Shown piece after piece: positions 6,384 to 58,341 of a stretch of DNA of 64,000 nt. Each line of letters opens with the position of its first letter. Positions within the stretch are counted from its first letter, which is position 1. This stretch comes from a virus. The stretch lies in the UHGV virus genome UHGV-0021337, one strand, 5' to 3'. A program made the position numbers and the translations under genes. The notes under the pieces were generated by a model. It had not been told where the DNA came from and ran no database searches. It was given only the letters and a program-made list of their open reading frames with translations.

Positions 6384-6402
6384 GGTTATTTCTTGTATTC
6401 TT

Positions 6403-6421
6403 AGTATAATTCTTGTATAAT
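6403..6421 (+). promoter_or_regulatory. tandem extended -10 elements (TAGTATAAT / TTGTATAAT)
   Basis: Two TGnTATAAT-like hexamers lie between the capsid terminator and the 6459 gene. Confidence 0.4.
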
Positions 6422-6458
6422 AACTAACCACGACCTCTAAATTGAAGGAGAATATAAA

Positions 6459-6734
6459 ATGAAACCTTTTGTTGTTTATATCAAACCAAATAAGAATGAT
6501 AACATAACACTAACCAAAGAAGAATTTGAACAGTATATTCAAGCAGCTTATGATAAAGGCTATGCAGACGGAGAGGCTGTTGGAGGTGTGACAATTACAC
6601 CTTCGCCTGTAACACCTTTAACTAATCCAGGAACTCCTTTGAACCCCTGGTATAGTACTCCTATTACTTGTGATACTGCTCATCCTAAAACTTGCGAGTT
6701 AAACAAAAGCACTGGCGTCACACTTCATTCATAG
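6459..6734 (+). CDS. hypothetical small virion-module protein, Pro/Thr-rich C-terminal half
   Basis: RBS GAAGGAG. The sequence TITPSPVTPLTNPGTPLNPWYSTPITCD is low-complexity Pro/Thr-rich. Confidence 0.5.
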   Translation: MKPFVVYIKPNKNDNITLTKEEFEQYIQAAYDKGYADGEAVGGVTITPSPVTPLTNPGTPLNPWYSTPITCDTAHPKTCELNKSTGVTLHS

Positions 6735-34963: not shown

Positions 34964-35401
34964 ATGAAAATTTATGGTAACGATGGTAATGCTTATGCAA
35001 CCGTCAAAGAAGCAAAAGAAGCAGATGAACGTTTTGAATTAGCACAAAAAGAAGCAGCTATCAAAAAAGAACAATCTGAAAAATGTGTTGTTAACGAAAA
35101 GAAAGAACTTTCAAATAAAATTCAAGTGGCTGAGCAGAAATATCAAGACGCTCTTGCTAACTACACGCAACTTAAGAAAGATGCTGAAGATTTAATACGG
35201 GAAGCCAACAAGAAAGCATACAACATTCTTCTTGAAGGCGCAAAAGAAGTAGAAAAGTATTCTAATGAACGTATGAATTTGATAAAAGAATTCAACGATA
35301 AATATGACAGGCCCTTCACACAATTTTACACAGGTAAAGATGCAGAAGAGCAATACAATAAGGTTATTAAGCAGTTTGCAGAAATATTCAAACTATTCTA
35401 A
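34964..35401 (+). CDS. hypothetical coiled-coil protein
   Basis: RBS AAGGAGA. A strong terminator follows. Confidence 0.5.
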   Translation: MKIYGNDGNAYATVKEAKEADERFELAQKEAAIKKEQSEKCVVNEKKELSNKIQVAEQKYQDALANYTQLKKDAEDLIREANKKAYNILLEGAKEVEKYSNERMNLIKEFNDKYDRPFTQFYTGKDAEEQYNKVIKQFAEIFKLF

Positions 35402-35813: not shown

Positions 35814-36526
35814 AAAAGTATTTTTGTTTCGGAGACGTACACAGTTTTTATACTGAACTCAAAGCTTCATTAGAAACTGCAGGATATGATAAAAATAACA
35901 AAGACCATATAATTGTAAGTTGTGGTGACCTTCTAGACAGAGGCAATGAGTCAATAGAATGTCTAAACTTTGTTAATTCTCTTCCTAAAAATAGGAAAAT
36001 CTTGATTAGAGGTAATCACGAAGACTTACTAGAAGAGTGTATAGATAGAAAAGAGTTCTTATCACATGATTTGCATAACGGGACTCTAAAAACCATCTTT
36101 CAACTGTGTGGTAAAGATGACTCTGAATTTTGGTTTAATGATAACTATAAAATTGTATTTGACCTTATAAAACAATGCAAGCCCTTGTATAAATACTTGA
36201 ATAGTTTACAAGATTACGCAGAAGTTGGTCCATACTTATTTGTTCATGGATGGTTTCCTTTATGTTTAGATTGGACACCCGAAGCTTGGAATAAAGCAAG
36301 GTGGTTGAATGGTATGGCTCAATGGCAAACAGGCCAACGCTATCCTGAAAAAACAGTTGTTTGTGGACATTGGCATACTAGTTGGGGAAATAGCAAACTT
36401 CATAACATCGGAGTTGAATGGGGACAAGATGCATCGTTTGAACCTTTTGTTGATGAAGGCATAATTGCCCTAGATGGTTGCGTTGCATATTCTAAAACAA
36501 TAAATGTAGTTGTATTGGAGATATAA
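35810..36526 (+). CDS. lambda-type Ser/Thr protein phosphatase (PPP family)
   Basis: GDVHSFY...CGDLLDRGNESIECL...IRGNHEDL...FVHGW...CGHWH is collinear with the lambda phosphatase motifs GDLHG / GDLVDRG / GNHE. Confidence 0.75.
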   Translation: MKKYFCFGDVHSFYTELKASLETAGYDKNNKDHIIVSCGDLLDRGNESIECLNFVNSLPKNRKILIRGNHEDLLEECIDRKEFLSHDLHNGTLKTIFQLCGKDDSEFWFNDNYKIVFDLIKQCKPLYKYLNSLQDYAEVGPYLFVHGWFPLCLDWTPEAWNKARWLNGMAQWQTGQRYPEKTVVCGHWHTSWGNSKLHNIGVEWGQDASFEPFVDEGIIALDGCVAYSKTINVVVLEI

Positions 36527-36915
36527 TGAATAACGATATAGTTAATTTTCTATACCAGAATGGTTGTGTTCAAGATGCTAGCGGACATATCACAACAGCT
36601 TGTGGTGATTATGTTACATATGCTAAACTTGATTCTGAACCAATCGCGAATTTTATATATAAACATAAGTTAACTGATTTACAATCAATTTCTACAGCAC
36701 GCGGAGAAGGTTGCGGAGGAGCAGTCGGTATCGGGTTCAATGCTGACGAGCAAAAATGGTATGGATTCACACATCGCGGATTTGGTTCGTTTGGAATTGG
36801 ATTCAAAGTAAAACCTCAATATGCAATTGCTTCTTCTTTACCTGAAGGATTTGAATGCAAAACTCTTGAAGATTGTAAACAAGCCGCTATTGCAATGAGT
36901 GAGTATCTTGATTAG
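36526..36915 (+). CDS. hypothetical protein
   Basis: ORF with an ATGA overlap. Confidence 0.4.
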   Translation: MNNDIVNFLYQNGCVQDASGHITTACGDYVTYAKLDSEPIANFIYKHKLTDLQSISTARGEGCGGAVGIGFNADEQKWYGFTHRGFGSFGIGFKVKPQYAIASSLPEGFECKTLEDCKQAAIAMSEYLD

Positions 36916-37238: not shown

Positions 37239-37506
37239 AGATGTTGCAAAGATACTAAAAATTGATAACTTTAACAGTAATGCTAGTGGCGATTCCATAA
37301 CATACACGCTTGACACAGACAACGATTTTGGTTCAGTTTATACTGTATTAGAATCAAACGATGATTTTCAAGAATCACAAGATAACTATATGTTGAATCC
37401 TACGATAGCCAACCTTGAATATGTATATAATAATGATTATAGAATTGAGTTGAAAGGAAATTTTGACTCGAACACATATTCAGTAACAATTACGGAGAAA
37501 CAATGA
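37231..37506 (+). CDS. hypothetical protein
   Basis: ORF. Confidence 0.4.
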   Translation: MIEDVAKILKIDNFNSNASGDSITYTLDTDNDFGSVYTVLESNDDFQESQDNYMLNPTIANLEYVYNNDYRIELKGNFDSNTYSVTITEKQ

Positions 37507-38159
37507 ATATAATAACAGACATCGAAAAACTGTCAAACAGATGTGATGAAGTTCTTGATTTAAGAAAAGAGAATAAAATAGTTCAACAAATAATCTTAGC
37601 TCTTAAGTCTAAGATTAGAGAAGATAAACTTGTAGGTCTAGCCGCTAACCAGCTCGGGTTCGATAAAAGAATAGTTGTTGTCGCATTTGGAGACGATTTA
37701 AGGACTTTCATAAATCCTATAATATCAAATGCAGAAGGATTAACTGTGTCAATTGAAACCTGTCCAAGTTTACCTGACAAGAAATTTTTGCGTTTACGAA
37801 ACCAGAAAGTTTCCGTAACATATACAGACCCTCTCGGTAAAATACTGACTGCAAAAGATTTGATTGGTAAAGCTGCGTTTGTAATGCAAGAACTCATAGA
37901 ACACTTAGATGGAGTAGTTCTTTCGGATATAGGTATGGAACTAGAAAAAGATTTTGACGAAGCGCCTATCGAAGAAAAAGAAGAGCTAATAAAAGCATAT
38001 TGTGACACAATGGATGTAAAATTACGTGATGTTAAGAAAGAAATCGAAGACACTCCAGAACTAAAGAAAATTTCCGATGCTGCTAATTTAATAAATAAAA
38101 TTCAAACAGGCAATGTTAAAGTAGAGCTTGTTGACAAGAGTATAAAGAAAGCCAAATAA
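37503..38159 (+). CDS. peptide deformylase-like protein
   Basis: GLAANQLG matches PDF motif 1 (GLAAxQ). ETCPSLP is in the position of motif 2 (EGCLS). QELIEHLDGV matches motif 3 (QHExDHLxG). The protein is 218 aa. Confidence 0.55.
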   Translation: MNIITDIEKLSNRCDEVLDLRKENKIVQQIILALKSKIREDKLVGLAANQLGFDKRIVVVAFGDDLRTFINPIISNAEGLTVSIETCPSLPDKKFLRLRNQKVSVTYTDPLGKILTAKDLIGKAAFVMQELIEHLDGVVLSDIGMELEKDFDEAPIEEKEELIKAYCDTMDVKLRDVKKEIEDTPELKKISDAANLINKIQTGNVKVELVDKSIKKAK

Positions 38160-45897: not shown

Positions 45898-48396
45898 ATG
45901 GCAGGATCATTGTGGGGCGAGAGTTTCGAGATTCCTGAAACTCCAAAAGTTGTTAAAAAAGTACTTGAGAAAGTAAATCATCCGAAAGATACAAAAGTTT
46001 CAGTTACAAAGACTATTAAATCTAACAAAGTTTCCGACAGAGATAAGTTGGTTTTAATTCGTGAAAATGTCAACAGAATTTTAGGCAAGTATGGTGATGA
46101 TACTCAGTTAATAAAAACAAGAGAAGAGTTAACAAAGTACATTGACTTTGCAATAAATTGTAGTGAGATAGCAATCGATACAGAAACAGATAATAGTTTG
46201 GACCCGATAACGTGTAAGTTAATGGGTGCGTGTATCTATTCTCCTGGACTTAAAAATGTTTATATTCCTGTAAATCACGTAGATATAAATACTCGTGAAC
46301 GATTTGATTGGCAGCTTACAGAGGCAGATATCAAAGAAGAATTTGACCGTTTAACAGCTGCCAAAACAAAAGTCATAACGCACCATGGAAAGTTCGATTA
46401 TGAAGTTCTAAAAATGACTACAGGTTATGTAATGTCTGTTTATTGGGATACTCTTGTTGGTGAAAAAATACTTGATGAAAACAAGCATGAATACGGCTTG
46501 AAACATCTTTATAGAGATAAATTTGACCCCGAACAAGAAAAGTATGACATAGAAGAATTGTTTGAAGGTGTCGAGTATGCAATAGTGGAGCCTGAGTTGT
46601 TTGCGTTATATGCAGCAACAGATGCTTACATGACTTACAAGTTATATAAATGGCAATTAGAACAATTTGACATTCCTGACCATAGCAGAATTAAGAATTT
46701 ATTTCTTAGCATTGAAATGCCTGTCTTACAAGTTTCCGCAGAAATGGAACTTGCAGGTATATGCTTAGATCAAGAATATGCAAAGAGGTTAAGTGCTAAG
46801 TACGCAAAGAAGCTTGAAGATATTGACGAAAAAACAGAAACGGAAGTTGCTAAATACGAAGACATCATATCTCAGTGGCGATTAACTACAGACGCAAACG
46901 AACATCCTATCAAGAACGGTAAGATGCAGAGGTCAAAAAGTGAACAATTAAAGTTTCCTGTAAACCTTGATAGTCCAACACAGCTCGCTATCTTATTGTA
47001 TGATGTTCTTAAATGTGGTGTTGTAAATAAGAAAAAGCCCAGAGGAACTGGAGAAGAAGAACTTACAGCTATTTATGCAAAGTACAAGATAGAACTTTGT
47101 AACATAATACTAGAGAGAAGAGGTCTTCTTAAGTTGATTACAACATATATAGATAAACTTCCACAGTGTGTAAATCCAGCAGACGGAAAACTCCACGCTA
47201 AGTTTAATCAGCTCGGCGCGGGCACAGGCAGGTTTAGTTCTAGTGACCCAAATCTTCAAAACATTCCGTCTCACGAAAAATCAATAAGAATGTTATTCGA
47301 AGCAAGTCCAGGGTGTTGCCTTTGTGGTGCGGATTTCTCGGCCCAAGAACCTCGTCTTTTAACACAGTTCAGCCAGGATTCTAAGATGCTTAACGCATAC
47401 AAAGAAGGAAAAGACTTGTATGCAATAATAGCTCAACAAGCCTTTCATAATGGATACTGGGATAACATGGAGCATTACGAAGATGGTTCTCCTAATCCAG
47501 AAGGCAAGAAAAGACGTGGTATCGCAAAAACTTTGCTCTTAGGAATAATGTACGGAAGAGGTTGTGCATCTATTGCAGACCAAATAGGGTGTAGTATTCC
47601 CGAAGCTCAAAAAATCATTGATACATTCTTCGAAAGTTTTCCTAAAGTAAGGGATTGGGTGACTAAAACAGAACAAGATGCTAAAAAACTAGGTTATGTT
47701 GAAGACTATTGGGGACGTAGAAGACGACTTCCTGATATTATGAAGCCTAAGTATACAATAACTGCTAAGGGTGAAGACACATCTATTTCAAAAGATTTCA
47801 ACCCGTTGTTAGGTGCATTAGGTCTCGTTAAAAATACACAGGGCACATTGACTGAAAAATGGCAGAATGCATTGTCAAAAATGAAAGGTCGTAAAGAGTA
47901 CGAGCAGATAAAATTGAACGCTGCAAAAGAAGGTGTGACGATAATCGATAATGGTGCATTTATAGCACAAGCAGAAAGGCAGTGTGTAAATGCACGTATT
48001 CAAGGTTCTGCTGCAACGTTAACTAAACTAGCAATGATTGAAGTATTCCACGATGAAGAACTTAGAACTCTTGGATTTAAACTTTTACTTGCAGTTCACG
48101 ACGAGTTGATTGGAGAATGCCCGATTGAAAACGTGAAAAAAGCAGCTGAACGTTTGTCTTATGTTATGGTTAATGCTGGAGTTAAGAATAACGTCGATAC
48201 ACCTATGAAGTGTGATGCAGAAATAGAGGACCATTGGTATTTCAACGAATATAAAACATTGATTAGGAAGGAATACGCAAAATATATTAGTGCAGGAGAT
48301 AGCAAAGAAGTTGCGTGGAGCAAACTTTGTGAGGAGCATTGTGAATCAACTCCTGAGCAGTTAAAAATAATTCTTGAAAGCGAGGAGGTAGCGTGA
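45898..48396 (+). CDS. DNA polymerase, family A with 3'-5' exonuclease domain
   Basis: Exo I is AIDTETDN. Motif A is ADFSAQEPRLL, motif B is RRGIAKTLLLGIMYG, motif C is VHDELIGE. Confidence 0.9.
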   Translation: MAGSLWGESFEIPETPKVVKKVLEKVNHPKDTKVSVTKTIKSNKVSDRDKLVLIRENVNRILGKYGDDTQLIKTREELTKYIDFAINCSEIAIDTETDNSLDPITCKLMGACIYSPGLKNVYIPVNHVDINTRERFDWQLTEADIKEEFDRLTAAKTKVITHHGKFDYEVLKMTTGYVMSVYWDTLVGEKILDENKHEYGLKHLYRDKFDPEQEKYDIEELFEGVEYAIVEPELFALYAATDAYMTYKLYKWQLEQFDIPDHSRIKNLFLSIEMPVLQVSAEMELAGICLDQEYAKRLSAKYAKKLEDIDEKTETEVAKYEDIISQWRLTTDANEHPIKNGKMQRSKSEQLKFPVNLDSPTQLAILLYDVLKCGVVNKKKPRGTGEEELTAIYAKYKIELCNIILERRGLLKLITTYIDKLPQCVNPADGKLHAKFNQLGAGTGRFSSSDPNLQNIPSHEKSIRMLFEASPGCCLCGADFSAQEPRLLTQFSQDSKMLNAYKEGKDLYAIIAQQAFHNGYWDNMEHYEDGSPNPEGKKRRGIAKTLLLGIMYGRGCASIADQIGCSIPEAQKIIDTFFESFPKVRDWVTKTEQDAKKLGYVEDYWGRRRRLPDIMKPKYTITAKGEDTSISKDFNPLLGALGLVKNTQGTLTEKWQNALSKMKGRKEYEQIKLNAAKEGVTIIDNGAFIAQAERQCVNARIQGSAATLTKLAMIEVFHDEELRTLGFKLLLAVHDELIGECPIENVKKAAERLSYVMVNAGVKNNVDTPMKCDAEIEDHWYFNEYKTLIRKEYAKYISAGDSKEVAWSKLCEEHCESTPEQLKIILESEEVA

Positions 48397-48659
48397 CTTT
48401 TACATTAGATGGCGTAGAGGCAATAGGACTAGTAGCTACAGTCATTCTTGTTGCTTCTATGTGTTTCAATACTAAAACTTTTATCGGAACATTACTTATG
48501 CGAGTTTTGAATCTTGTATGTAGTGTTGTGTGGATTATATATGCCTGTGCTCATACGCCAGGACTTTTATCAACTTTGGTTTCAAACATTTTGTTAACAA
48601 TTATCAATTTGTATTTTCTTATCATTGCCGTAAAAAATAAAGATAACTTTGGTAAGTAA
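48393..48659 (+). CDS. small 3-TM membrane protein (GTG start, overlaps the polymerase stop)
   Basis: Three hydrophobic helices, loosely SemiSWEET/holin-like in size. Confidence 0.4.
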   Translation: MTFTLDGVEAIGLVATVILVASMCFNTKTFIGTLLMRVLNLVCSVVWIIYACAHTPGLLSTLVSNILLTIINLYFLIIAVKNKDNFGK

Positions 48660-48683
48660 ACAAAATAGTTTGTATACATATAT

Positions 48684-48743
48684 AGAGGGATGTTCAGTTG
48701 TCTACTCCCGCCCTCTTAAAAATAAATTAAAACGGAGACTATT
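48684..48743 (+). promoter_or_regulatory. candidate preQ1-I-like riboswitch / structured leader upstream of the YhhQ-family transporter
   Basis: AGAGGG-(21-nt loop AUGUUCAGUUGUCUACUCCCG)-CCCUCU is followed by the A-rich tail UAAAAAUAAAUUAAAACGGAG. For comparison, the B. subtilis preQ1-I aptamer is AGAGG-UUCUAGCUACA-CCCUCU-AUAAAAAACUAAGGA. The loop CUCC can pair with the SD GGAG. The loop is longer than the consensus. Confidence 0.3.
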
Positions 48744-49463
48744 ATGAAGAAATTATTAAACGAATACAAAATTTTATTACGAAATGTACCTAGTCTAATT
48801 GTTGGCTTGTTTATTGTTGCAGTTGTTAGCTGTAATATACTTGCAAATAAAACAATTGTAAGTGTTGGAGATTGGTTCGCACTAGATGGAGGAATTGTTG
48901 TTAGTTGGCTTATATTCTTGTGTATGGATATGGTAACTAAACGATTCGGACCAAAAGCAGCAACGCGTTTAACTTTAGTTGCAGCAGGTGTTAATTTACT
49001 TGTGTGTGGTTTATTCTACATTGTTAGCGTTATACCTTCTTCAGCTGATGACTATACAGCACTAAATGGAATTTTAGGCGGTACTTGGTTTATTCTGATG
49101 GATAGTACAATAGCATTTATTGTCTCAGGAATAATCAACAATTTTGTAAACGCTGGTATAGGTAAAGCGTTCAGGAAAAATCCAGACGGAAAACTTGCAT
49201 ATGTTTCAAGAACTTATGTATCTACGTTTATTGGACAATTTATTGACAACTTAATTTTTGCAGTTTTAACCTTTATGGTATTCAGCCCTATTTTCTGGGA
49301 CGGATTTAGTTGGACATTCTTACAGTGTGTAACGTGTTCTTTAACAGGAGCAATTGCTGAATTATTGATGGAAATCATCTTCTCGCCTCTTGGATATAAA
49401 ATTTGCAATAAATGGAAAGCAGAAGGCGTTGGCAATGAATATCTTGAATTGGTAAAAGCCTAG
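48744..49463 (+). CDS. yhhQ: YhhQ/COG1738-family queuosine-precursor (preQ0/preQ1) transporter
   Basis: About 6 TM helices. LDGGIVVSWLIFLCMDMVTKRFGPKAATR aligns with E. coli YhhQ TWGAFSFPFIFLATDLTVRIFGAPLARR. FIDNLIFAVL aligns with NVSDTLAFF. Confidence 0.7.
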   Translation: MKKLLNEYKILLRNVPSLIVGLFIVAVVSCNILANKTIVSVGDWFALDGGIVVSWLIFLCMDMVTKRFGPKAATRLTLVAAGVNLLVCGLFYIVSVIPSSADDYTALNGILGGTWFILMDSTIAFIVSGIINNFVNAGIGKAFRKNPDGKLAYVSRTYVSTFIGQFIDNLIFAVLTFMVFSPIFWDGFSWTFLQCVTCSLTGAIAELLMEIIFSPLGYKICNKWKAEGVGNEYLELVKA

Positions 49464-49474
49464 TTCATACAGAG

Positions 49475-49511
49475 ACGACACGAAATACGGCATCGTGTCG
49501 TTTTCTTTTTG
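49475..49511 (+). terminator. rho-independent terminator after the transporter
   Basis: ACGACACG-aaatacggcat-CGTGTCGT followed by TTTTCTTTTTG. Confidence 0.75.
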
Positions 49512-49640
49512 ATTTATTCTTTGATTACCTTTATAATAAATGTATAAGTTAGGAGAAAGCTAACTTGAACATTGAAGAAATTAAAAAATCTAATCAAACA
49601 ACCTGAAAAGGTGAATTTATGAGTAGAGTTGGAGGTAGAT

Positions 49641-49901
49641 ATGAACTGGAAAAAAGAATTTATCAAATTATTAGAATCGAGAGCCTTTGCGACTAATTCA
49701 GAAATCGATGATTACGCTGACGAACACAATTTGCCAGTAGCCGACGTTTGGCAGTGTTTCTCGGAATATATGGAAGATTGTTTAATTAAACAGTCAATCG
49801 GAACACCTTGCGAAGGTTGCAAATACGTTGTTCAAACAAAAGGCTCGATACCTTGTTATGAGTGTTGTCGAAATAAGGCTGATTTTTACAAAAAGATATA
49901 A
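49641..49901 (+). CDS. small Cys-rich (zinc-ribbon) protein, start revised to ATG 49641
   Basis: RBS GGAGG. PCEGCK...PCYECC. Confidence 0.45.
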   Translation: MNWKKEFIKLLESRAFATNSEIDDYADEHNLPVADVWQCFSEYMEDCLIKQSIGTPCEGCKYVVQTKGSIPCYECCRNKADFYKKI

Positions 49902-49930
49902 CAGAAGACACGTTTCATTAGGGGGTAATT

Positions 49931-50092
49931 ATGCGTAAAGAACACGACGGGAAGATTTACTTCCCACATTATGAAGAAATTTTGCTCGAGGATGCTTTGA
50001 CCGCGATGGTTAAAATTATGCAGGAAACTGGACATTTGTATTACGTTGAATGGAACGGAAAGTTCTATTACAGCGACGAGGTAAAAATATGA
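49931..50092 (+). CDS. small hypothetical protein (53 aa, not in the ORF track)
   Basis: RBS GGGGG 6 nt upstream of the ATG. ATGA-coupled to the next gene. Confidence 0.35.
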   Translation: MRKEHDGKIYFPHYEEILLEDALTAMVKIMQETGHLYYVEWNGKFYYSDEVKI

Positions 50093-50292
50093 GATTCAAC
50101 GGACAAAATATGATATACACTGCAGACGACGAATTTCCCAACTGTAGCGTGTGTGAAAAACAAGACTTCTGTTATTTATGCATGGAGTGCGGTCCAAGCT
50201 TTGCGTGGCAACACTACGAAAGATCTGAAGACAATGCTGAGCTGAATCGTCTGTACAAGGAGCTTGAGAGGTACAAGAAACAATATGATTAA
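50089..50292 (+). CDS. small zinc-finger protein (start revised to ATG 50089)
   Basis: CSVCEKQDFCYLCMEC. Confidence 0.4.
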   Translation: MRFNGQNMIYTADDEFPNCSVCEKQDFCYLCMECGPSFAWQHYERSEDNAELNRLYKELERYKKQYD

Positions 50293-50470
50293 ATACTACA
50301 CCGAGCGTGAGCTTGATTACAACGAAATTGAAACTCCATCCTCATATCCAAAAGAAGTAGTCCTAGACAAAATCAAAAATCTAGATAAACGAGATATAAA
50401 GTTTAAGCCTGTACTCGATCCTCAGTGTGTTATAACTACAACTTGGACTATAAGTAATGACGATAACTAA
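50285..50470 (+). CDS. small hypothetical protein
   Basis: Coupled ORF. Confidence 0.35.
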   Translation: MIKYYTERELDYNEIETPSSYPKEVVLDKIKNLDKRDIKFKPVLDPQCVITTTWTISNDDN

Positions 50471-50522
50471 TTGATTGTTTATATAAATTATATTATAATA
50501 AGCATATAAGAGAGGTGTATAT

Positions 50523-50747
50523 ATGAATAACGAGAAACACGAAGTAACAAAAGAAGAAGTTGGAGAACAGATCTGGGAACTTTTCAAAGGTGACTCTAAA
50601 AAACATAGAACGCATAACTATGAAAAAACATATGATGGAATTAGTCAATGTTTCACGTTACGTAATAGTAAACGATATTTAATAACACAGAATTCAAAAG
50701 ATAACAACGATATAAAAGTCGAAAGATATATAAAAAATCATCACTAA
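50523..50747 (+). CDS. small hypothetical protein
   Basis: RBS AGAGAGG. Confidence 0.4.
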   Translation: MNNEKHEVTKEEVGEQIWELFKGDSKKHRTHNYEKTYDGISQCFTLRNSKRYLITQNSKDNNDIKVERYIKNHH

Positions 50748-50761
50748 GGTTTAAGTTAATT

Positions 50762-50965
50762 ATGAACTGTCCTAGATATATAAAAGACAAAATTCTTTTA
50801 CGAGCAAAATACGCTATGAAATTTATGAAATTAGATTGCGATATATGCAATTGGATGCAGGCTAATAATATAGATAGTGAATACTCTCTTCCCGGATATG
50901 TAGAAAGTCTGTGTGGTGGTTACAGTGCAGCTGAAGAAACACTTCAAGACATTGAAAATTCATAA
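50762..50965 (+). CDS. small Cys-containing hypothetical protein
   Basis: ORF. Confidence 0.4.
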   Translation: MNCPRYIKDKILLRAKYAMKFMKLDCDICNWMQANNIDSEYSLPGYVESLCGGYSAAEETLQDIENS

Positions 50966-51020
50966 AATTCGTGTTAATTAGACATAAGTTATTGTATAAC
51001 AAATACAAACAGGAGGTATT

Positions 51021-51971
51021 ATGCCATATTATTTTTCTGGAGCATATAATCAGGCCTTGAAAATACGGTTAAATGTTGACCAACTATTCTCAGTGTATCA
51101 TGAGAAAAAATTGATTGAAAAAACAATCTTATATAAAAGAGAACATCCTGAATATACCGCAAAAATTTTCTTAGACAGTGGAGCTTTCACGCATTTCCAG
51201 AATATGAAGAAAAAGGGAATCACGCTTACTGACAACGACATAAAGGACTACACAGATAAATATCTTTCTTTCTTAAATGAATGGGGCGAAGACTTGGAGT
51301 GCTTTGTTGGCGTCGATAGTGTACCAAATCCAGAACACGTTGACCCAACGTTTGTTCATAAAACTTGGGCAAATTATTTGTATATGTGGGAAAGGTTAAA
51401 ACCGAGTATTCGTCATAAATTGATTCCTGTTTTCCACTTTGGGGAAGATTTCAATGAATTGAAGAAGTGGCTTGAATATAGACATCCAGATGGAAGTAAA
51501 GTTGAGTATCTTGGTCTTGCAATTTCGTTGGAAGGAAATCGAAAAGTAAGAATTGCTTGGGGACAAGAAGCCGAAAGAATAATCAAAGCATCTTCTAATC
51601 CAAATGTTAAGACTCACGCGTTTGGTGTTGGGGTTAAGAGCGTTATGGAAAATATAAACGTAACTTCGACGGATGCCACGAGTTGGTTGAAGCGTGCAGC
51701 ATATGGAATGATTTCGGTAGACGATAAGACTGTATATATAAGTGACTTGCAAGAACAGAAGTCCGACGGCAGACATCTTAAAGATAAGTCACTAGCTTAT
51801 CAAGAAGAAGTATTTAAGAAAATAAAAGAAAAAGGCTTTACGCTTGAGCAGTTAGCTACAGACAATTACGCGAGAGCGGAATTTAACATTTTGGATACGT
51901 TAGAATGGTATAATAAATTAGAAGCATCAAAACGTATCGAAAAGGGCGCAAAGGTTGATTTAGGTTGGTAA
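51021..51971 (+). CDS. dpdA: DpdA-like DNA-guanine transglycosylase (TGT superfamily, no zinc subdomain)
   Basis: IFLDSGAFTHFQ matches the TGT catalytic DSGGFQ motif. HAFGVGVKSVMEN matches LMGVGKPEDL. VTSTDATSWLKRAAYG matches FDCVMPTRNARNG. RBS AGGAGG. Confidence 0.6.
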   Translation: MPYYFSGAYNQALKIRLNVDQLFSVYHEKKLIEKTILYKREHPEYTAKIFLDSGAFTHFQNMKKKGITLTDNDIKDYTDKYLSFLNEWGEDLECFVGVDSVPNPEHVDPTFVHKTWANYLYMWERLKPSIRHKLIPVFHFGEDFNELKKWLEYRHPDGSKVEYLGLAISLEGNRKVRIAWGQEAERIIKASSNPNVKTHAFGVGVKSVMENINVTSTDATSWLKRAAYGMISVDDKTVYISDLQEQKSDGRHLKDKSLAYQEEVFKKIKEKGFTLEQLATDNYARAEFNILDTLEWYNKLEASKRIEKGAKVDLGW

Positions 51972-51982
51972 TCTCAGACGAG

Positions 51983-53869
51983 ATGAAACAAGATGTTGTT
52001 GAGTTCTATAAAACAAACTCAACAACAATTACTTGTGAACAATTTCATATAACTTGGGACAGGCTTAAAAAGATACTGGCTGAATATGATGTAGCTCCAC
52101 ACGATGCAAAAATTAATAGAGAACTGACATCGTTATACAGATTCGGAGTTACTAATGCAGGAAAATCTGTAGAGTTACAGGAAAAAGCAAAACAAACAAC
52201 AGCGTCAAGATATGGTAGTTCAAATTACAGGAATCACGACAAAGCTCGTCAGACCCGTATAAACAAAGATGGCTCATTAGAAGCATCATATAGAAAAGCT
52301 CAGAAAAGACAAGAAGAAACGAACTTGGCTAAGTATGGAGTTAAAAGTTATTTTCAAACTGAATTATTTCAAGAACAGTCTAAGGATACTTGCTTAGAAC
52401 GTTACGGCAAAGAGTTCTATCGTCAAACTCAAGAATATCAGGACCGCGTTAAAGAAACATCTTTACAAAAATATGGAGTAGAACACTATACTCAATCTGA
52501 CCAGTATAAAACAAAAGTAAGAGATACTTGCCAAGAAAGATACGGCAACGATTCGTGGTTTGGCTCGGAAGCTGGTAAGAATGCTATCAAAGACAGTTGT
52601 TTACAGAGGTATGGTGTTTCTAACGCTATGCAGTCGTATGAAGTGATAACGCGAGCAAAAGAAAAGCTTGTTCAGAAATATGGTGTTGACAACGTTATGA
52701 AATCTTCAGATATCAGAAGTAAGCAAGCACAGTCGAGTCGTTGTTCTAATTTTGAGCAAGAAGTTCAGCATTGGTTGTCAAATAGAAACGTTGCTTTTAC
52801 TACTCACTATGTTATTAAACAAGGAGGTTTGATTCACGAGTTTGATATTGCTTTATACGAAGGTAATCAGCTCGTTTGTCTAGTAGATTGTGACGGGACT
52901 TACTATCATGGATACAACGACGATATAAATGGTAGATCTGTAAACCCATACATAGATGAATATAGAATGCTGCTTGTTCCTAAAGATGTTTTATTTCTTG
53001 TGTTACTTCCAGACACTTGGCAAGAGCAGCTTGAAGAATACTTTAATAACAAACAAAGTTACGAGCAAGTCATATTCACCTGGTGTAAATCTATAGACTT
53101 TCCATATCCTAACATAGACAATGTTGAGGCTTCCTATAAGTCACTGGTAAAGGCAGATGTGAGTAAATTTTCGATGAACGCTCGATATGGAATGCGAGTT
53201 ATCGACGCTTTTCATAAATCTATCTGGAAAGCAAATAGAAAAGGTTTCTTGAGCCCTTATGCTGCTTGGCGTGATGAAGAATTGCTACGCAGATGTATCA
53301 ATAATCGTATAATTTATAAAGGTACTAACTTAGACCCTTCCAAGGTTCTATACGGTTTTAGTGCTGCAAAGATTGCTCCTAAAGTGTCGATATTTAATCC
53401 TTATCTGGCTAAGTATTTGATAAATAAGTACTTGAACGAATTTACAACTGTTTTTGACCCTTGCTCTGGATATAGCGGCAGACTTTTAGGCGCAACATCA
53501 TTGGGTAAACATTATGTAGGACAAGATATAAATGCTACAACAGTTGAAGAATGTTTACAAATACGTGATAAGCTCAATCTCGACGCTGAATTATCTGTTG
53601 TTGATTCTTTGAGTACTACAGGAAGTTATGAGGCTTTATTTACCTGTCCTCCTTATAGTGACAAAGAAAACTGGAACCAAGAAATTTTGAATCTAACATG
53701 CGATGAATGGATTACTCGATTTATAGAAAACTATAAATGTAAAAGATATTTATTCATTGTAGACAAAACAGAAAAGTATAAAGATTATATTGTTGAAGAA
53801 ATAGAGAATAAATCACATTTTAGTGAGAATATTGAATATGTTATATTGATAAATAGAGGTAATATATGA
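51983..53869 (+). CDS. tri-domain protein: eight tandem YG repeats of about 22 aa, a Vsr/DUF559-like PD-(D/E)xK nuclease domain, and a C-terminal MTase-like domain
   Basis: Repeats are of the type ..(K/R)YG(V)...(Q)..(E/D)....K.. T (KYGVKSYFQTE..., ERYGKEFYRQTQ..., QKYGVEHYTQSD..., and so on). The middle domain is HEFDIALYEGNQLVCLVDCDGTYYHG (D...(V/I)DCDG..H, Vsr/I-Bth0305I-like). The C-terminal domain has FDPCSGYSGRLLGA (motif I) followed by LFTCPPYSD (motif IV-like). The start codon is uncertain (TTG 51965 or ATG 51983/51992). Confidence 0.5.
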   Translation: MKQDVVEFYKTNSTTITCEQFHITWDRLKKILAEYDVAPHDAKINRELTSLYRFGVTNAGKSVELQEKAKQTTASRYGSSNYRNHDKARQTRINKDGSLEASYRKAQKRQEETNLAKYGVKSYFQTELFQEQSKDTCLERYGKEFYRQTQEYQDRVKETSLQKYGVEHYTQSDQYKTKVRDTCQERYGNDSWFGSEAGKNAIKDSCLQRYGVSNAMQSYEVITRAKEKLVQKYGVDNVMKSSDIRSKQAQSSRCSNFEQEVQHWLSNRNVAFTTHYVIKQGGLIHEFDIALYEGNQLVCLVDCDGTYYHGYNDDINGRSVNPYIDEYRMLLVPKDVLFLVLLPDTWQEQLEEYFNNKQSYEQVIFTWCKSIDFPYPNIDNVEASYKSLVKADVSKFSMNARYGMRVIDAFHKSIWKANRKGFLSPYAAWRDEELLRRCINNRIIYKGTNLDPSKVLYGFSAAKIAPKVSIFNPYLAKYLINKYLNEFTTVFDPCSGYSGRLLGATSLGKHYVGQDINATTVEECLQIRDKLNLDAELSVVDSLSTTGSYEALFTCPPYSDKENWNQEILNLTCDEWITRFIENYKCKRYLFIVDKTEKYKDYIVEEIENKSHFSENIEYVILINRGNI

Positions 53870-54162
53870 AAAGTTATTATCATTATTATGATGTATGTTT
53901 TACAAAAGATGCTGCTGTTTTTGATAGAGAATTTACAACTGATGACTGTGAAGTAATTGAAGGTTTAGATGATGTTACATCAAATGAATTACAACTAATC
54001 ATTAAAGTGATTGAATACGTTAGACCCGATATTGAAAGAATACGTGTATTATATAATGTATATGAACATGACGATGATGCTGAAGATGATATATGTTTAA
54101 CATGCGATAGCATATTAGATGTTGTTAGAGATAATGAAGGTAAATTTGTTTTAAATTGCTGA
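53866..54162 (+). CDS. hypothetical acidic protein (very AT-rich gene)
   Basis: ORF with ATGA coupling. Confidence 0.4.
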   Translation: MKSYYHYYDVCFTKDAAVFDREFTTDDCEVIEGLDDVTSNELQLIIKVIEYVRPDIERIRVLYNVYEHDDDAEDDICLTCDSILDVVRDNEGKFVLNC

Positions 54163-54235
54163 TATAATGAATTTATTACATTTTAGTTGATAAATATTTG
54201 TTTTTATGTTACAATAAAATAAAAAGAGGTTTATT

Positions 54236-54637
54236 ATGTTAACTAAAAATAATTGGCAAAACGCTTTTGATATGTTAAATGATTATGCTAATATTGATGA
54301 TAGATTTTACGGTGGTGTATGTTCTTATAAATTTTTAAGTTTTGAAGGTGTTAAAAAGTTAGTTGAAAATAAGTATTTAAATTTAACTGAGAGACAAAAC
54401 TATTCACCTATGGTTAAAAATTGGATTAAATTTATAGAGACTAATAATTTACAAGACAAAATATTTTTTCATGGTTATATTGTAGAGAAAGGTAGATTTG
54501 ATAGACGTATTTCTATAGAAGGTATACAAGCTAACGCCAATATTAAATTTTCAGAGGATGAATTAAAATCCATTGTAGATTTTTGTTATGGCGCAGATAC
54601 ACTTAGAATCTCTCCATTATATGTTTGGTGGGATTAA
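54236..54637 (+). CDS. hypothetical protein (very AT-rich gene)
   Basis: RBS AAGAGG. Confidence 0.4.
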   Translation: MLTKNNWQNAFDMLNDYANIDDRFYGGVCSYKFLSFEGVKKLVENKYLNLTERQNYSPMVKNWIKFIETNNLQDKIFFHGYIVEKGRFDRRISIEGIQANANIKFSEDELKSIVDFCYGADTLRISPLYVWWD

Positions 54638-54728
54638 ATTAAACTATAATCATTATGTCTAATAACGATTGTAATGAATCTGATGACTTCTAGATAGCTG
54701 CTAAATTAAAAATATAGGAGATATAGTT

Positions 54729-54896
54729 ATGCCTAAATTAAATATAAATGAAGGTTTTGATGAATTATATAATCATAAGTGTGCAGATGTTTTACGTGCT
54801 GAATTAGATGGAAATTATGATGATAATGTGCATGAAGATAATTTATTACAAGATGTTTTATTTCATTTTGAAAACAGAGTAGATAAAAATAAATAA
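54729..54896 (+). CDS. small hypothetical protein (55 aa, not in the ORF track)
   Basis: RBS AGGAGA 7 nt upstream of the ATG. Confidence 0.35.
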   Translation: MPKLNINEGFDELYNHKCADVLRAELDGNYDDNVHEDNLLQDVLFHFENRVDKNK

Positions 54897-54917
54897 AACT
54901 TCGATGTTGTGTTATAA
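54895..54917 (+). promoter_or_regulatory. extended -10 promoter TGTGTTATAAT
   Basis: TGnTATAAT at 54907-54917. Confidence 0.4.
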
Positions 54918-54979
54918 TATAAGAAAGTAAGAAAATAAACTGAGAGTAAATATTTTGGAGACTTAAATAGGAGCAATTT

Positions 54980-55129
54980 ATGAGATATAGTAATTTTCAC
55001 CGTCATTCCATGTACAGCAATTTGCCCGCCGGGATTATAATGATTTGTTTAGGGATGTGTGAGCTCTTTCAAGGGCTATCATCGGAAGTACGCAAAAGAA
55101 CAATAAGTCAGTATCACGTATTTAGTTGA
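54980..55129 (+). CDS. small ORF (49 aa) in a locally GC-richer segment
   Basis: RBS AGGAG 7 nt upstream. The composition (CCCGCCGGG...) differs from the flanks. It could be non-coding instead. Confidence 0.25.
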   Translation: MRYSNFHRHSMYSNLPAGIIMICLGMCELFQGLSSEVRKRTISQYHVFS

Positions 55130-55181
55130 TTCTTCCTCGATAATCCCTTATAATAAATGTAATAAATAAGAGGTAGATAGT

Positions 55182-55505
55182 ATGAAATTTTCAGATATGG
55201 ATGCAAGACAACAAAAAGCTTTTCGCAACATTAAATACGCAGCAGATGATTTGTTAGGTGGTTTAGAAAACACGTTACTCGATTATGATGAACAAGATCA
55301 AGAATATATCGACGCCGAAAAATTACTCTCGAATCACTCCGAACTTGTTAATCAACTTTATAAGAAGGCTACTACAGAACTTTACGGGCCAGGTTTTTGT
55401 GGTTTTGGAAAAGAGGCTCAGATGATTATTCGGGATATAAATTTCTGCGGCAAAGTGTGGTTGATGGAACGTTGTGAAAAACGAATAACAAAAGAAGGCT
55501 ATTGA
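55182..55505 (+). CDS. hypothetical protein
   Basis: RBS AGAGGTAG. Confidence 0.4.
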   Translation: MKFSDMDARQQKAFRNIKYAADDLLGGLENTLLDYDEQDQEYIDAEKLLSNHSELVNQLYKKATTELYGPGFCGFGKEAQMIIRDINFCGKVWLMERCEKRITKEGY

Positions 55506-55550: not shown

Positions 55551-56273
55551 ATGGCAACAGCATTAGTTACAGGAACAAGCTCGGGAGTGGGTAAAGCAAC
55601 AGCTCTTAAACTTCTAGCTATGGGAATAGATGTTATAGGTCTTGATTGGAAAGATAGTACAATTCATAGACCTCATTATTTTCACTTCAAATGTGATGTA
55701 AGCAAGTATGAAGAACTTCCTTCGCTTGACAGTTTAGGAGGCATTGAGTACATTGTTAACAATGCAGGAATAGTAACACCTAAAGCAGACGCTATCGCAG
55801 TTAATCAGATTGGATATATAAATGTATTGCAAAAATATGCGGATAACAATCCGAAGTTAAAAAGCATTGTAATTATTGGTTCATCTGCCTCGGTCAAGGG
55901 CTACGACAATCGAGAATATTGCACTTCGCAAGGTGCAAGAGATGCATTAACCAAGTGGGCCGCTAACAACTATGGTAACGACCCTAGACACGTTTTAGTC
56001 AACGAACTTCGTCTCGATGGTATTGTAGCAGCAGACCCGGAAAAGGGTATTGAAGGTACTACTTTGGAACCTGAGCTTTATGCAGCAGATGGATTGATGG
56101 ACCAAATAGCTAATCTGAGCATTTTAAAAAGGTTGGCTACTGTCGAAGAGATTGCAGAATGGATTTATTTTATTCTTGTAGTTAACACAATTGTAACTGG
56201 GCAGATAATAGATGTTGACGGAGAACTCATGGGAGCTTTCAAATTTGTTCCTTACAAAGGGTGGAATGACTAG
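55551..56273 (+). CDS. short-chain dehydrogenase/reductase (SDR) family protein
   Basis: N-terminal Rossmann motif ALVTGTSSGVGKA (TGxxxGxG). NNAG motif VNNAGI. The catalytic YxxxK is non-canonical (YCTSQ). Confidence 0.7.
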   Translation: MATALVTGTSSGVGKATALKLLAMGIDVIGLDWKDSTIHRPHYFHFKCDVSKYEELPSLDSLGGIEYIVNNAGIVTPKADAIAVNQIGYINVLQKYADNNPKLKSIVIIGSSASVKGYDNREYCTSQGARDALTKWAANNYGNDPRHVLVNELRLDGIVAADPEKGIEGTTLEPELYAADGLMDQIANLSILKRLATVEEIAEWIYFILVVNTIVTGQIIDVDGELMGAFKFVPYKGWND

Positions 56274-56274: not shown

Positions 56275-57156
56275 ATGAAGATAATGTGCTTAACACCTTG
56301 TCTGATGTTAGATAATACCAGAGCAATAAACGCTAAGTCAATACAAAATAACATAGATGTTCTTAAACTCGATGAATATGTAATCTATGACCAGATGTTT
56401 GCACCTAGCGATTTTAACTCGAAATGTACATATATAGGTCACGCAGATAAACGAATGGGCTGGGCAGTACCAAGAAATGCTTTACTTAAGTATTTTTATG
56501 ATTCTGACTTTGACTATGCGTTTTTTATTGATGCAAATTCTGTTCCGTCTAAACCTACGCTAAATGATTTACTGAGCATAATAAGAAGTCTTAGAGCAGG
56601 TGAGTTATCTTTCTGCGACGCTATTTTTAGCACATTAGGTATGTGGGTAAGTCAAGAGCGTATAATGTGCAAATCCTTACCTGACCACCTCGAAAATGTT
56701 CATCTAGTACCCGCTCGTTGTGATAAAAGTTACAACTGGATGCACGGATTATTTGTAAAGAATTTCAAGAAGTATTATGGCCAGGAATTCTATATGGATG
56801 AAAGATGTCATGTATTAGAAGGAACTCCAGAAGATGTATTCTTTGCTCGTCTATTAAGGAAGTATGCAAATTGTTGGGTTGCTCCTACAGTGGTAATCAA
56901 CAAACCTTCTTCTAATGCTTCTTGTACAATGGCAAATGGTAAAGGTACTTATGATTATCCGCCTGTATTGTTTGATAAAGAAGATGAATACATTTCTGAA
57001 CTCTCTCAGAAAAACGGATATCATCACTGTAATAGAAGTGTACGACCTAGCGAAGTTGTTATACCTCGCGTTTCGGAGTATAAAGATTTAGTTACTCCGT
57101 ATAAATCAAGACAAAAGAAAGTACAAGAAACTTCAAGAAAACAAGTACTTTTTTAA
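56275..57156 (+). CDS. family-2-like (GT-A fold) glycosyltransferase (start revised to ATG 56275)
   Basis: GWAVPRNALLKYFYDSDFDYAFFIDANSVP fits the GT2 pattern (G.A.ARN.G......DYI.FLDADD). RBS AAAGGGTGG. The gene overlaps the SDR stop. Confidence 0.45.
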   Translation: MKIMCLTPCLMLDNTRAINAKSIQNNIDVLKLDEYVIYDQMFAPSDFNSKCTYIGHADKRMGWAVPRNALLKYFYDSDFDYAFFIDANSVPSKPTLNDLLSIIRSLRAGELSFCDAIFSTLGMWVSQERIMCKSLPDHLENVHLVPARCDKSYNWMHGLFVKNFKKYYGQEFYMDERCHVLEGTPEDVFFARLLRKYANCWVAPTVVINKPSSNASCTMANGKGTYDYPPVLFDKEDEYISELSQKNGYHHCNRSVRPSEVVIPRVSEYKDLVTPYKSRQKKVQETSRKQVLF

Positions 57157-57219: not shown

Positions 57220-58341
57220 ATGATTATTAGAACTGAAAAATTACAGCCTGCTTGTAGTAAGTTACTTCCTGCAGTAGACTCAACCGCTATTGCAGAAATA
57301 ACCGATGTACTCGAGTTAAAAACTGTATGTAAGATGCTCTATATAAATGTTACGAATAGAGAGTATTTTGCACAAGTTAAAATTGAACTTGACGATGTTG
57401 TTGATTTCCACGCAACTGTTAGTGCAAACCTGTTTTTAAGACTTGTTGCTCAGATTACGACCGAAACCGTTGAGCTCAACATTTCAGACACAACTTTGAA
57501 AATGAAAGGTAATGGGTCTTATGACATTCCGTTGATATTTGACAACGACAAGTTGATGGACCTTCCAGCAATCGAAATCAAAAATCCGACTGCAGAACTC
57601 TCTGTAGACAGTGACATTCTTCAAAGCATCATGAACTACAACTCTAAAGAACTTATGAAGGATTTGATTCTTCAACCTGTTCAGAAAATGTATTACATTG
57701 ACCAAGAAGGTTGTATTACATTCACGACTGGAGCGTGTGTAAATAACTTCCATCTTGACCAGCCGATAAAAGTACTTCTTAATCAGCGTCTTGTTAAACT
57801 TTTCAAGTTGTTTAACAATGGCAAAGTTAAAGTAACTCTCGGTCATGATCCGTTATCAGAAACGATAATTCAGACAAAGATTAGATTTGAATCAGATATG
57901 GTTTGTTTAACTGCAATACTTTCGTGTGATGACGATATGGTCAATAGAGTTCCGGCAGTAGCTATCAGAGGAAGAGCTAATAAAAAATATCCGTACAATA
58001 TTACTATTAGTAAAGCTGAATTGAATGAAACGATAAACAGACTTCTTCTTTTCTCGAGCACAAGTACTCTTAATAGAATTAAAGCAGATAGTAAATTTGT
58101 ATTTGAAAATTCTTGTGTTAGAGTTTACGACGTTACTCAAGCAAATGTAGAAAAAGTTTACTATAAAACTGGTGTACTTCCCGAAGGTGAACAGTATGTA
58201 GCAACGTTTGACTTAAACGATTTAAAACACGCACTAGATAGCAGCGATGATGACTTCGTTACATTTGGTTTCGGAGACCACGCAGCTCTTGTAATTATTT
58301 CTAAATCAGTTAGACACGTTGTTCCGGAAGTAGCTGCTTAA
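57220..58341 (+). CDS. hypothetical protein (373 aa; weak sliding-clamp-like length and pattern)
   Basis: RBS GGAGGA. The length matches DnaN-type clamps, and there is a loose N-terminal resemblance (KLQPACSKLLPAVDS...). No firm motif. Confidence 0.3.
   Translation: MIIRTEKLQPACSKLLPAVDSTAIAEITDVLELKTVCKMLYINVTNREYFAQVKIELDDVVDFHATVSANLFLRLVAQITTETVELNISDTTLKMKGNGSYDIPLIFDNDKLMDLPAIEIKNPTAELSVDSDILQSIMNYNSKELMKDLILQPVQKMYYIDQEGCITFTTGACVNNFHLDQPIKVLLNQRLVKLFKLFNNGKVKVTLGHDPLSETIIQTKIRFESDMVCLTAILSCDDDMVNRVPAVAIRGRANKKYPYNITISKAELNETINRLLLFSSTSTLNRIKADSKFVFENSCVRVYDVTQANVEKVYYKTGVLPEGEQYVATFDLNDLKHALDSSDDDFVTFGFGDHAALVIISKSVRHVVPEVAA

Follow-up and report, generated by a model that had tools for sequence, protein, structure and literature searches.

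How does a phage that encodes a DNA-guanine transglycosylase of the DpdA type, and in which 82 kb searched show no recognisable pathway to the 7-deazaguanine that such an enzyme would insert, come by its substrate? The question is raised by UHGV virus genome UHGV-0021337, of which we analysed one stretch of 64,000 nucleotides (hereafter the window): a gene for a YhhQ-family transporter lies there between those for a family-A DNA polymerase (PolA) and DpdA, and genes for a short-chain dehydrogenase/reductase (SDR) and a DnaN-like sliding clamp follow further downstream. We consider it fairly probable that these genes form a DNA-modification module in which DpdA is fed by an imported 7-deazaguanine precursor instead of by the phage's own synthesis; judging from sequence, the phage would then probably build protective DNA from scavenged material. 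The general idea of DpdA-only phages and of phage YhhQ is already known: 76 phages with DpdA alone were listed in 2019, with host supply or uptake proposed for them, and phage YhhQ homologues were noted 'with no correlation to any group' (Hutinet 2019, PMC6884629). A preliminary description of the window, made from the letters alone, had proposed a scavenging variant of the known systems; its novelty was overstated in light of that earlier work, and, although the proposal as a whole is supported in part, its core is supported by threefold evidence, stronger than that available to the description and reported below, namely the alternation of importer and synthesis operon in one genomic slot, the match of the phage genes to a bacterial transporter-SDR pair, and a preQ1-I-like leader on some of the bacterial pairs. 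New here are the lineage-wide replacement of a synthesis operon, a transporter-SDR pair with its counterpart in a bacterial operon preceded by a preQ1-like leader, and a possible tethering of DpdA to the clamp.

The assignment of the transglycosylase relies on family, fold and catalytic residues. The 316-residue protein matches phrog_887 ('queuine tRNA-ribosyltransferase') with E 2.5e-38, and tblastn relates it to the DpdA of Dp-1 (32% identity, E 6e-34) and of CAjan (27%, E 2e-17) as well as to those of MS1 and 9g-like phages. Its AlphaFold2 (AF2) model was obtained with a predicted local distance difference test score (pLDDT) of 94.7 and a pTM of 0.91, and the best 45 Foldseek matches in the PDB are all of the TGT fold (TGT, arcTGT, QTRT1 and Cap10; E from 1e-7, TM 0.5-0.6), with no Pfam family found for the sequence at E<=0.1, TGT (PF01702) included. 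Across an alignment of 105 diverse homologues, 25-68% identical to the window protein, residues D52, D99, H139, H199, G202 and D218 are invariant. The best PDB sequence match of the DpdA profile is the bacterial DpdA 7UI4, a marginal similarity (E 0.02) in which DSGAF (D52..F56) aligns with DCGAF and TSTDATS (D218) with TSIDSTT. In the bacterial enzyme Asp95 is the general acid/base, Phe99 the gate and Asp256 the nucleophile, and Asp130 and His181 read the base (PMC10164549). From this correspondence of residues the catalytic machinery of the window DpdA is predicted to be intact.

Genes for preQ0 synthesis were sought in the window and 10 kb on each side of it. On the human-gut metagenome scaffold ERZ28613651 scaffold_231 (144,491 bp) the window spans positions 60849-124848, and the search covered scaffold positions 52522-134641, that is 82 kb or 57% of 144.5 kb. 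A tblastn search with the FolE, QueC, QueD, QueE and QueF-like proteins of Dp-1 and CAjan returned no match, either in the window or across four related loci; profile hidden Markov models (HMMs) of five sequences each, sister-lineage sequences included, gave no Que match at E<=10 among 543 six-frame segments of the window and its flanks; and Pfam scans of the non-structural genes returned no Que family. As a positive control, the same reference proteins detected the Que genes of sister phages. The absence extends to relatives, with no Que gene within 10 kb of DpdA in about 27 module-bearing loci. As weaker evidence, the best 80 viral loci with a QueE match included not one of the 18 IMG/VR contigs that bear the module, nine of which exceed 100 kb. 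One weak tblastn match to QueE, at 37503-38159, was rejected, the protein being a peptide deformylase (E 5e-21) and the gene a translation-related auxiliary one.

What stands in place of these genes was revealed by comparative anatomy. We assembled 24 loci (designated, like the others below, by L numbers) with DpdA at 56-100% identity from ENA, Logan and IMG/VR, in which the order is constant: DnaB, primase, PolA, (TM88), Vut_1, (inserts), DpdA, SDR, (GT-A, (CofD-like, NTP-transferase)), DnaN-like clamp, ..., RecA, the members in parentheses being variable. PolA, found 5' of the module in every locus reaching that far, is the upstream anchor of the slot and the clamp its downstream anchor; the SDR lies 3' of DpdA in every related locus read through that position, and the inserts between Vut_1 and DpdA comprise TM88, a GDSL esterase, a nucleoside-deoxyribosyltransferase-like protein, small open reading frames (ORFs) or a DUF7487 gene. 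The order Vut_1 ... DpdA-SDR-GT-clamp persists in a locus with DpdA at 41% identity (L039). Sister phages at 34-37% DpdA identity share the DnaB-primase-PolA ... clamp ... RecA module, and two of them (L041, L042) read PolA > QueD > QueE > FolE > QueC > DpdA > clamp and a third (L043) PolA > QueD > QueE > FolE > QueF > QueC > x > DpdA > clamp, with neither transporter nor SDR found in these three loci. The slot between PolA and DpdA thus holds either a synthesis operon or an importer, and the importer type has the SDR after DpdA. This alternation is the best reason we have for regarding the importer as the supplier of DpdA, and it also lowers the odds of a Que cluster at another place in the genome.

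The importer of the window, whose gene is 3' of that for PolA and 1.56 kb from dpdA, is assigned to Pfam Vut_1 with 94.1 bits (cut-off 27.2) over profile positions 1-150 of 152. The preliminary description had named it a YhhQ/COG1738 transporter and its neighbour a DpdA-like protein of the TGT fold, with DSG(A/G)F..FQ and GVG motifs, a spacing of about 1.5 kb, a polymerase beside the transporter and no preQ0 synthesis genes in the window; all of this stands, the motifs being present as DSGAF..FQ and HAFGVGV, and of the two Pfam families that it had named Vut_1 is confirmed and TGT is not. It had missed the SDR, the adjoining glycosyltransferase, the small membrane protein TM88 and the transporter-gene leader. 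The TM88 gene overlaps the end of the PolA gene by 4 nt, and TM88 was seen in L039 and in the majority of the 24 loci, sometimes before and sometimes after Vut_1 but always beside it. It belongs to no Pfam, PHROG or NCBIfam family and was not found in 80 bacterial Vut_1 loci, and is thus phage-specific; it may assist the importer.

Those bacterial loci came from a scan with the phage Vut_1 alignment over one genome per GTDB species, which returned no fewer than 591 matches, and we examined the top 80 (L044-L123). Their Vut_1 homologues are 55-69% identical to the window transporter, and all come from metagenome-assembled contigs of Bacillota or of unclassified bacteria, with Clostridia, Oscillospiraceae, Ruminococcus, Eubacteriales, Acholeplasmatales and Erysipelotrichaceae of gut and rumen among them. 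An SDR gene lies immediately 3' of Vut_1 in 76 of the 80, overlapping it by 4 nt in 38; there are no phage genes in these loci and the other neighbours are not conserved. Phage and bacterial SDR share 39% identity (E 1e-42) over their full length, including an unusual C-terminus, and the window SDR carries the cofactor motif TGTSSGVG together with NNAG. Because of the immediate adjacency in 76 of the 80 bacterial loci, we regard the SDR as the predicted functional partner of the transporter, the phage pair matching the bacterial pair in both genes. No account of a QPTR-SDR pairing was found in the literature searched, and the QPTR papers of 2017 and 2024 name no dehydrogenase partner.

A third line of evidence comes from the leaders of the bacterial pairs. 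Many of these loci show a hairpin of 5-7 bp with UUC after the 5' strand and UC before the 3' strand, followed by an A-rich tail, AAAAC and a ribosome-binding site, and several have (by eye) a terminator-like hairpin with a T-run after the leader. A preQ1-I riboswitch of type I is marked by UU following the 5' strand of P1, by UC ahead of the 3' strand, by an A-rich tail and by a conserved C (PMC11625349). PreQ1 is the best Rfam match for two leader variants (28.9 bits, E 1e-4, and 16.7 bits, E 0.12); at gathering thresholds Rfam found no riboswitch in 11 bacterial loci, the sub-threshold likeness to PreQ1 being seen in short-window searches alone. A covariance model (R1) built from ten bacterial leaders of one subgroup, in whose helix 100% of cells are paired with three compensatory pairs, finds the leader in 25 of the 80 bacterial loci, about a third (for instance at 5799-5844 in L047, where Vut_1 is at 6001-6711), and also just upstream of phage Vut_1 in L029, L014, L030 and, weakly, L026 (E 5e-4 to 0.33). 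The window leader has the same layout as the bacterial ones, and its hairpin has a minimum free energy of -9.1 kcal/mol. It is 89% identical to the leader of L012/L036, as opposed to just 51-53% in the flanking upstream DNA and the coding sequence, and L010 has one compensatory pair; because of the 89% identity beside some 51% in the adjoining coding sequence, the element appears clearly to be under selection.

These observations suggest the following scheme. A DpdA1-like enzyme would cut guanine from phage DNA and insert a 7-deazaguanine by the double displacement of TGT. By analogy with the bacterial enzyme, D218 would act as nucleophile, D52 would serve as general acid/base, and D99 and H139 would read the edge of the base. 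The supply would be met by the QPTR/YhhQ importer in place of the preQ0/preQ1 synthesis operon of the sister phages, possibly assisted by TM88, and the SDR would presumably convert or condition the imported compound, for which a preQ0, preQ1 or queuine-type precursor is possible. Targeting may be provided by the basic C-terminal tail of DpdA, which ends in L[F/W] and could tether the enzyme to the sliding clamp.

Several observations weigh against uptake-fed modification, and we set them out with the explanations that they favour. The module-bearing loci form one collinear phage group, in which adjacency could be inherited gene order and not functional coupling. The structural Zn site (CxCx2Cx22H) that is a feature of TGT and of bacterial DpdA (PMC10164549) is absent from the window DpdA, since the protein has a single Cys in 316 residues. 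In the window SDR the catalytic Ser-Tyr-Lys set is incomplete, YxxxK reading Y-C-T-S-Q with Gln for the catalytic Lys; Y-x-x-S-Q-G is found in 23 of 24 phage SDR copies, whereas the bacterial partners keep YCASKGG, and this lineage-fixed change may mean an altered chemistry or a role in binding only.

The alternative that survives best, and to which we give a minor share of belief, is that modification does not depend on uptake: preQ0 would come from the host's pathway or from Que genes in the other 62 kb of the source genome, and the transporter would top up the supply as in CAjan. There, yhhQ lies within a full Que cluster, and its deletion left modification unchanged (PMC6884629, PMC7544227); de novo synthesis of queuosine is found in about half of the reference genomes from the gut (PMC6593275); and the other 43% of the genome could hold a distant Que cluster, so that the preQ0 pathway elsewhere in the genome, which the preliminary description had named as fatal to scavenging, can be said to be absent from the 57% covered. 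Against this explanation, the Que operon of the sister phages occupies the exact slot between PolA and DpdA that is held here by the transporter, and Que genes are likewise missing around DpdA in the relatives and, as weak evidence, module-bearing contigs among the best 80 QueE-positive viral loci.

A second alternative, which we regard as improbable, is that the transporter imports another compound, such as another purine, a pterin or a vitamin; the base inserted by DpdA would then be an unknown one, or would reach the enzyme by another route. The window transporter reaches 46.8 bits with the NCBIfam equivalog TIGR00697, 'queuosine precursor transporter', which is under the cut-off of 50.95, as are a bacterial member of its clade (50.0) and the phage protein of L014 (45.9), as opposed to the transporters of MS1 (112) and phiFN37 (about 152-153), which pass. 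Substrates within COG1738 are heterogeneous (PMC5372724, PMC11130926), and the Vut_1 family was named 'putative vitamin uptake transporter'. All matches of the bacterial leaders are under the Rfam gathering score of 39 bits, and their commonest, longer-looped variant has no Rfam PreQ1 match at all. For the window leader a 76-nt search gave no match to PreQ1 (RF00522) at E<=10, its best Rfam match being SAM-II with 13.5 bits, and R1 gave 4 bits, which is no match; one phage leader tested on Rfam likewise did not match PreQ1. Several SDRs, moreover, reduce pterins. These points are countered by the slot swap with the Que operon, by the two leader variants whose best Rfam family is PreQ1 and which show type-I hallmarks, and by the fact that the characterised COG1738 members all carry preQ0, preQ1 or queuine.

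The transporter-SDR pair might also be an auxiliary metabolic cassette, functionally unrelated to DpdA, by which the queuosine content of host tRNA is raised and phage translation improved. In bacteria the pair stands alone, presumably for tRNA modification; such boosting was proposed for phages with Que genes and without DpdA (Hutinet 2019, PMC6884629); and this phage carries other translation genes, for the deformylase mentioned above and for ribosomal protein S21. We find this unlikely, in that the pair brackets DpdA in every relative and alternates with the DpdA-feeding Que operon of the sister phages, and the Lys-to-Gln change fixed in the phage SDR and unseen in bacteria suggests a changed role. 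That the DpdA homologue is inactive or works at trace level, the module giving no real protection, would agree with the DpdA-only phages tested, of which Orion has no modification and Salmonella 7-11 about 50 per million nucleotides (PMC6884629, PMC7544227), and is given little credence in view of catalytic residues invariant over the 105 homologues, a family with no fewer than 921 cluster representatives (E<=1e-3) and the retention of dpdA in every relative while its neighbours turn over.

The C-terminus of DpdA offers a hint as to where the enzyme would act. The sequence ends in LF in 60 and in LW in 14 of the 105 homologues, which represent many phage groups (74/105, with Dp-1 and MS1 included), after a basic stretch. 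In the window the C-terminus (51944-51971) ends DLGW, and the tail is of low pLDDT and forms a disordered end in the model. The L[F/W] tail resembles a clamp-binding peptide of the QLxLF-like kind and, on these sequence grounds, may tether DpdA to the phage sliding clamp encoded just downstream. A literature search for a link between DpdA and the clamp found none, and a 2023 survey of DpdA subfamilies names neither transporter nor clamp. The glycosyltransferase of the GT-A fold encoded after the SDR is a member of a family of just 79 proteins, its gene being found in many, not all, of the relatives; 30 of 46 members end in LF, as does the window protein, the tail of which (57127-57156) is a disordered, low-confidence end in the model and, like that of DpdA, resembles a clamp-binding peptide. 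A third ORF of the window (34964-35401) ends KLF. Foldseek matched the glycosyltransferase to TarP, AvpGT, TarS and RmlT (E 2.5e-8, TM about 0.5) and to viral GT2 proteins, and its invariant D78, D80 and D86 lie in ...SDFDYAFFIDAN..., which is not the textbook DxD. A PDB sequence search found nothing for this protein. Candidate acceptors are DNA, wall polymers and small molecules.

Further genes of possibly related chemistry were seen in relatives. In some, a 565-residue CofD-family protein (PF01933) and an NTP_transf_3 nucleotidyltransferase are encoded between the glycosyltransferase and the clamp; in F420 synthesis the pairing of CofD with a nucleotidyltransferase makes and transfers an activated phospho-group. 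One sub-lineage has a nucleoside 2-deoxyribosyltransferase-like protein (PF05014) between transporter and DpdA, which could free bases from imported nucleosides or swap them for others, and another has the GDSL esterase there. A more elaborate scheme may tentatively be drawn, which we hold to be rather doubtful as a whole: the SDR would be an unrecognised salvage enzyme for queuosine precursors that turns an imported compound, be it preQ0, a queuine-type molecule or some other 7-deazaguanine, into the base that is both sensed and used, in operon with the divergent QPTR in at least several hundred genomes of gut and rumen Bacillota; the pair would have been captured by a whole lineage of large gut phages in place of the preQ0 operon to feed DpdA; and in part of that lineage a clamp-tethered glycosyltransferase, sometimes with the CofD-like protein and the nucleotidyltransferase, would decorate the base as a glycosylated 7-deazaguanine. 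We know of no glycosylated 7-deazaguanine in DNA to date.

Among known systems, those of Dp-1 and MS1 are the nearest. Dp-1 has the closest characterised DpdA (of DpdA1 type, with dPreQ1 in the phage DNA), and both phages encode DpdA just 5' of a DnaN-like clamp in a replication module with RecU, dUTPase and a UvsX/RecA-type recombinase, a precursor transporter immediately 5' of DpdA (QueT in Dp-1, Vut_1 in MS1) and DpdA C-termini reading ...RRLF and ...NRLF. Unlike the window, they have full FolE/QueD/QueE/QueC (and Dp-1 also a QueF-like gene), neither SDR nor GT-A, and genomes of 56 kb, and the Vut_1 of MS1 is 24% identical to that of the window. In CAjan and the Queuovirinae (dPreQ0), as here, DpdA adjoins a polymerase processivity factor and a yhhQ-like transporter is in the cluster; the full Que pathway, the dispensable yhhQ and the more distant DpdA set CAjan apart, and its 159-residue transporter has no similarity to that of the window detectable by tblastn. 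The 'Group 3' DpdA-only phages (Salmonella 7-11, Mycobacterium Orion) share with the window a DpdA without preQ0 genes, and Fusobacterium phage phiFN37 has DpdA, one ORF and then an annotated queuosine-precursor transporter, with no synthesis genes in the 16 kb around. Neither Group 3 nor phiFN37 has the SDR partner, the slot-swap evidence or the leader element, and phiFN37 further differs in being temperate, with a genome of 85 kb and a canonical transporter 25% identical to that of the window. The bacterial Dpd system (DpdA/DpdB/DpdC of Salmonella Montevideo; PDB 7UI4) has in common with the window DpdA the TIM-barrel transglycosylase chemistry and an active-site set of three Asp and a His, whereas the window has no DpdB ATPase partner, Zn site or bacterial insertions. 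Akin to bacterial QPTR/YhhQ genes under preQ1-I control (for instance E. coli yhhQ, type III), the COG1738 importer here follows a leader with a hairpin and an A-rich tail that contains the ribosome-binding site; unlike in those cases, importer and SDR show translational coupling, and the leaders are longer-looped and below the Rfam gathering score.

The genes that separate transporter, DpdA and SDR in the window had been put forward in the preliminary description as possible tailoring factors, six of them as tiny Zn-ribbon ORFs and one as a tri-domain nuclease/methyltransferase protein. Only two of the six small ORFs have two CxxC pairs (49629-49901 and 50050-50292) and one has a single CxxC (50762-50965), the remaining three having no or one Cys. 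Three of them (s1, s5 and s6) are kept in L002 and s5 alone in L010, an s5-like ORF occurs in L039/L040, and there are otherwise none in distant relatives; the four small ORFs further downstream are all absent from distant relatives, where the SDR directly adjoins DpdA. The description of the 634-residue protein was roughly right: the DUF7487 repeats are firmly matched, the middle is PD-(D/E)XK-like as read by eye, and the C-terminus is weakly methyltransferase-like (phrog_18146, E 9e-6; Pfam N6_N4_Mtase, E 0.065), with nothing found for this domain in a PDB sequence search. Its gene splits DpdA from the SDR in the window and is absent in L010, a locus 86% identical, and relatives have DUF7487 genes at four further sites (five with that of the window), all intergenic in the replication module; in L016 the methyltransferase-bearing form sits between SDR and glycosyltransferase. 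Two DUF7487 genes have such a C-terminal domain (motifs DPCSGYSG and CPPY), which is unusual for a homing-endonuclease-like gene. By its sequence, the 634-residue protein is taken to be a mobile insertion resembling homing-endonuclease genes. Because these genes differ between near-identical strains, are absent in L010 and, in the case of DUF7487, vary in position, they are best read as mobile or variable and not as tailoring factors. The features of the module are listed in Table 1.

Table 1. Genes and elements of the module region, with the sites of the variable genes in related loci (all window genes are on the + strand).
Feature	Position	Strand	Basis or remark
Family-A DNA polymerase (PolA)	45898..48396	+	Pfam DNA_pol_A_exo1 and DNA_pol_A on identical gene in L002/L003
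TM88, 88-residue membrane protein, about three hydrophobic helices	48393..48659	+	hydropathy windows 3-27, 29-55, 57-82
Transporter-gene leader, 60 nt	48684..48743	+	hairpin AGAGGG...CCCUCU, A-rich tail, GGAG ribosome-binding site
Vut_1/QPTR (YhhQ, COG1738) transporter, divergent subfamily, 239 residues	48744..49463	+	PF02592
Six small ORFs, 53-90 residues, variable accessory genes	49629..50965	+	poorly kept among relatives
DpdA-type (DpdA1-like) DNA-guanine transglycosylase, 316 residues	51021..51971	+	phrog_887, fold, catalytic residues
DUF7487-repeat protein, 634 residues	51965..53869	+	DUF7487 E 3.5e-45; homing-endonuclease PHROGs
Four small ORFs, 98, 133, 55 and 107 residues, mostly variable	53866..55505	+	107-residue ORF alone recurs in L002, L010
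SDR-family oxidoreductase	55551..56273	+	adh_short / adh_short_C2 E 3e-14
GT-A fold glycosyltransferase, 293 residues	56275..57156	+	AF2 pLDDT 91.8; phrog_2456 glycosyltransferase E 1.3e-4
DnaN-like sliding clamp	57220..58341	+	phrog_947 DNA polymerase processivity factor E 4e-11; weak Pfam DNA_pol3_beta
DUF7487-gene sites	window 51965-53869; L016 12236-14284; L002 14593-15735; L027 8447-9910; L031 13850-15430		
CofD-like/NTP_transf_3 sites	L012 12879-15306; L016 15203-17628; L023 12546-14971; L027 12865-15324		
PF05014 sites	L014 9385-9774; L015 8274-8777; L030-L033 and L037 9382-9871		

As for the phage itself, proteins identical to those of the window are encoded on scaffolds of 143-144 kb from human-gut metagenomes in ENA, and scaffold_231 encodes T4-type head genes (Gp23, Portal_T4, gp13). 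Megablast of the region against deposited phages gave no DNA-level match, and the nearest cultured relatives by capsid are the Bacillus phages vB_BceM-HSE3 and SP-15 and Listeria phage LIS04 (about 31-32% identity); the source is therefore an uncultured lineage of human-gut phages of about 144 kb with T4-like capsids, probably with a Bacillota host. MT835496.1 was rejected as a full-length relative, a distant Vut_1 being the sole gene in common. A 129-residue protein (36526-36915) matches Pfam Tad6, an inhibitor of type I Thoeris, with E 1.4e-14, and is likely encoded by an anti-defence gene; a homologue of ribosomal protein S21, translation-related like the deformylase, is encoded about 7 kb past the downstream end of the window (L009 17244-17543). 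In the structural region, a 736-residue protein (9380-11590) contains an intein-splicing domain (Pfam PF14890, on an identical gene in L008), and the PolA gene is split in relatives, with a GIY-YIG gene between both parts in L016.

For the question whether DpdA-only phages modify their DNA, this lineage offers a clean natural comparison, the same replication module being combined with either a synthesis operon or an importer and SDR. The transporter-SDR operon is common in Bacillota of gut and rumen and apparently uncharacterised, and could be a missing step of queuosine salvage. Tethering by the DpdA tail, if true, would show by what means a base-exchanging enzyme can keep up with replication. 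Sharing of queuosine precursors is widespread in the gut (PMC6593275), and if the module works, the protection of gut phage DNA would be tied to a micronutrient shared by the community, linking anti-restriction to nutrient ecology.

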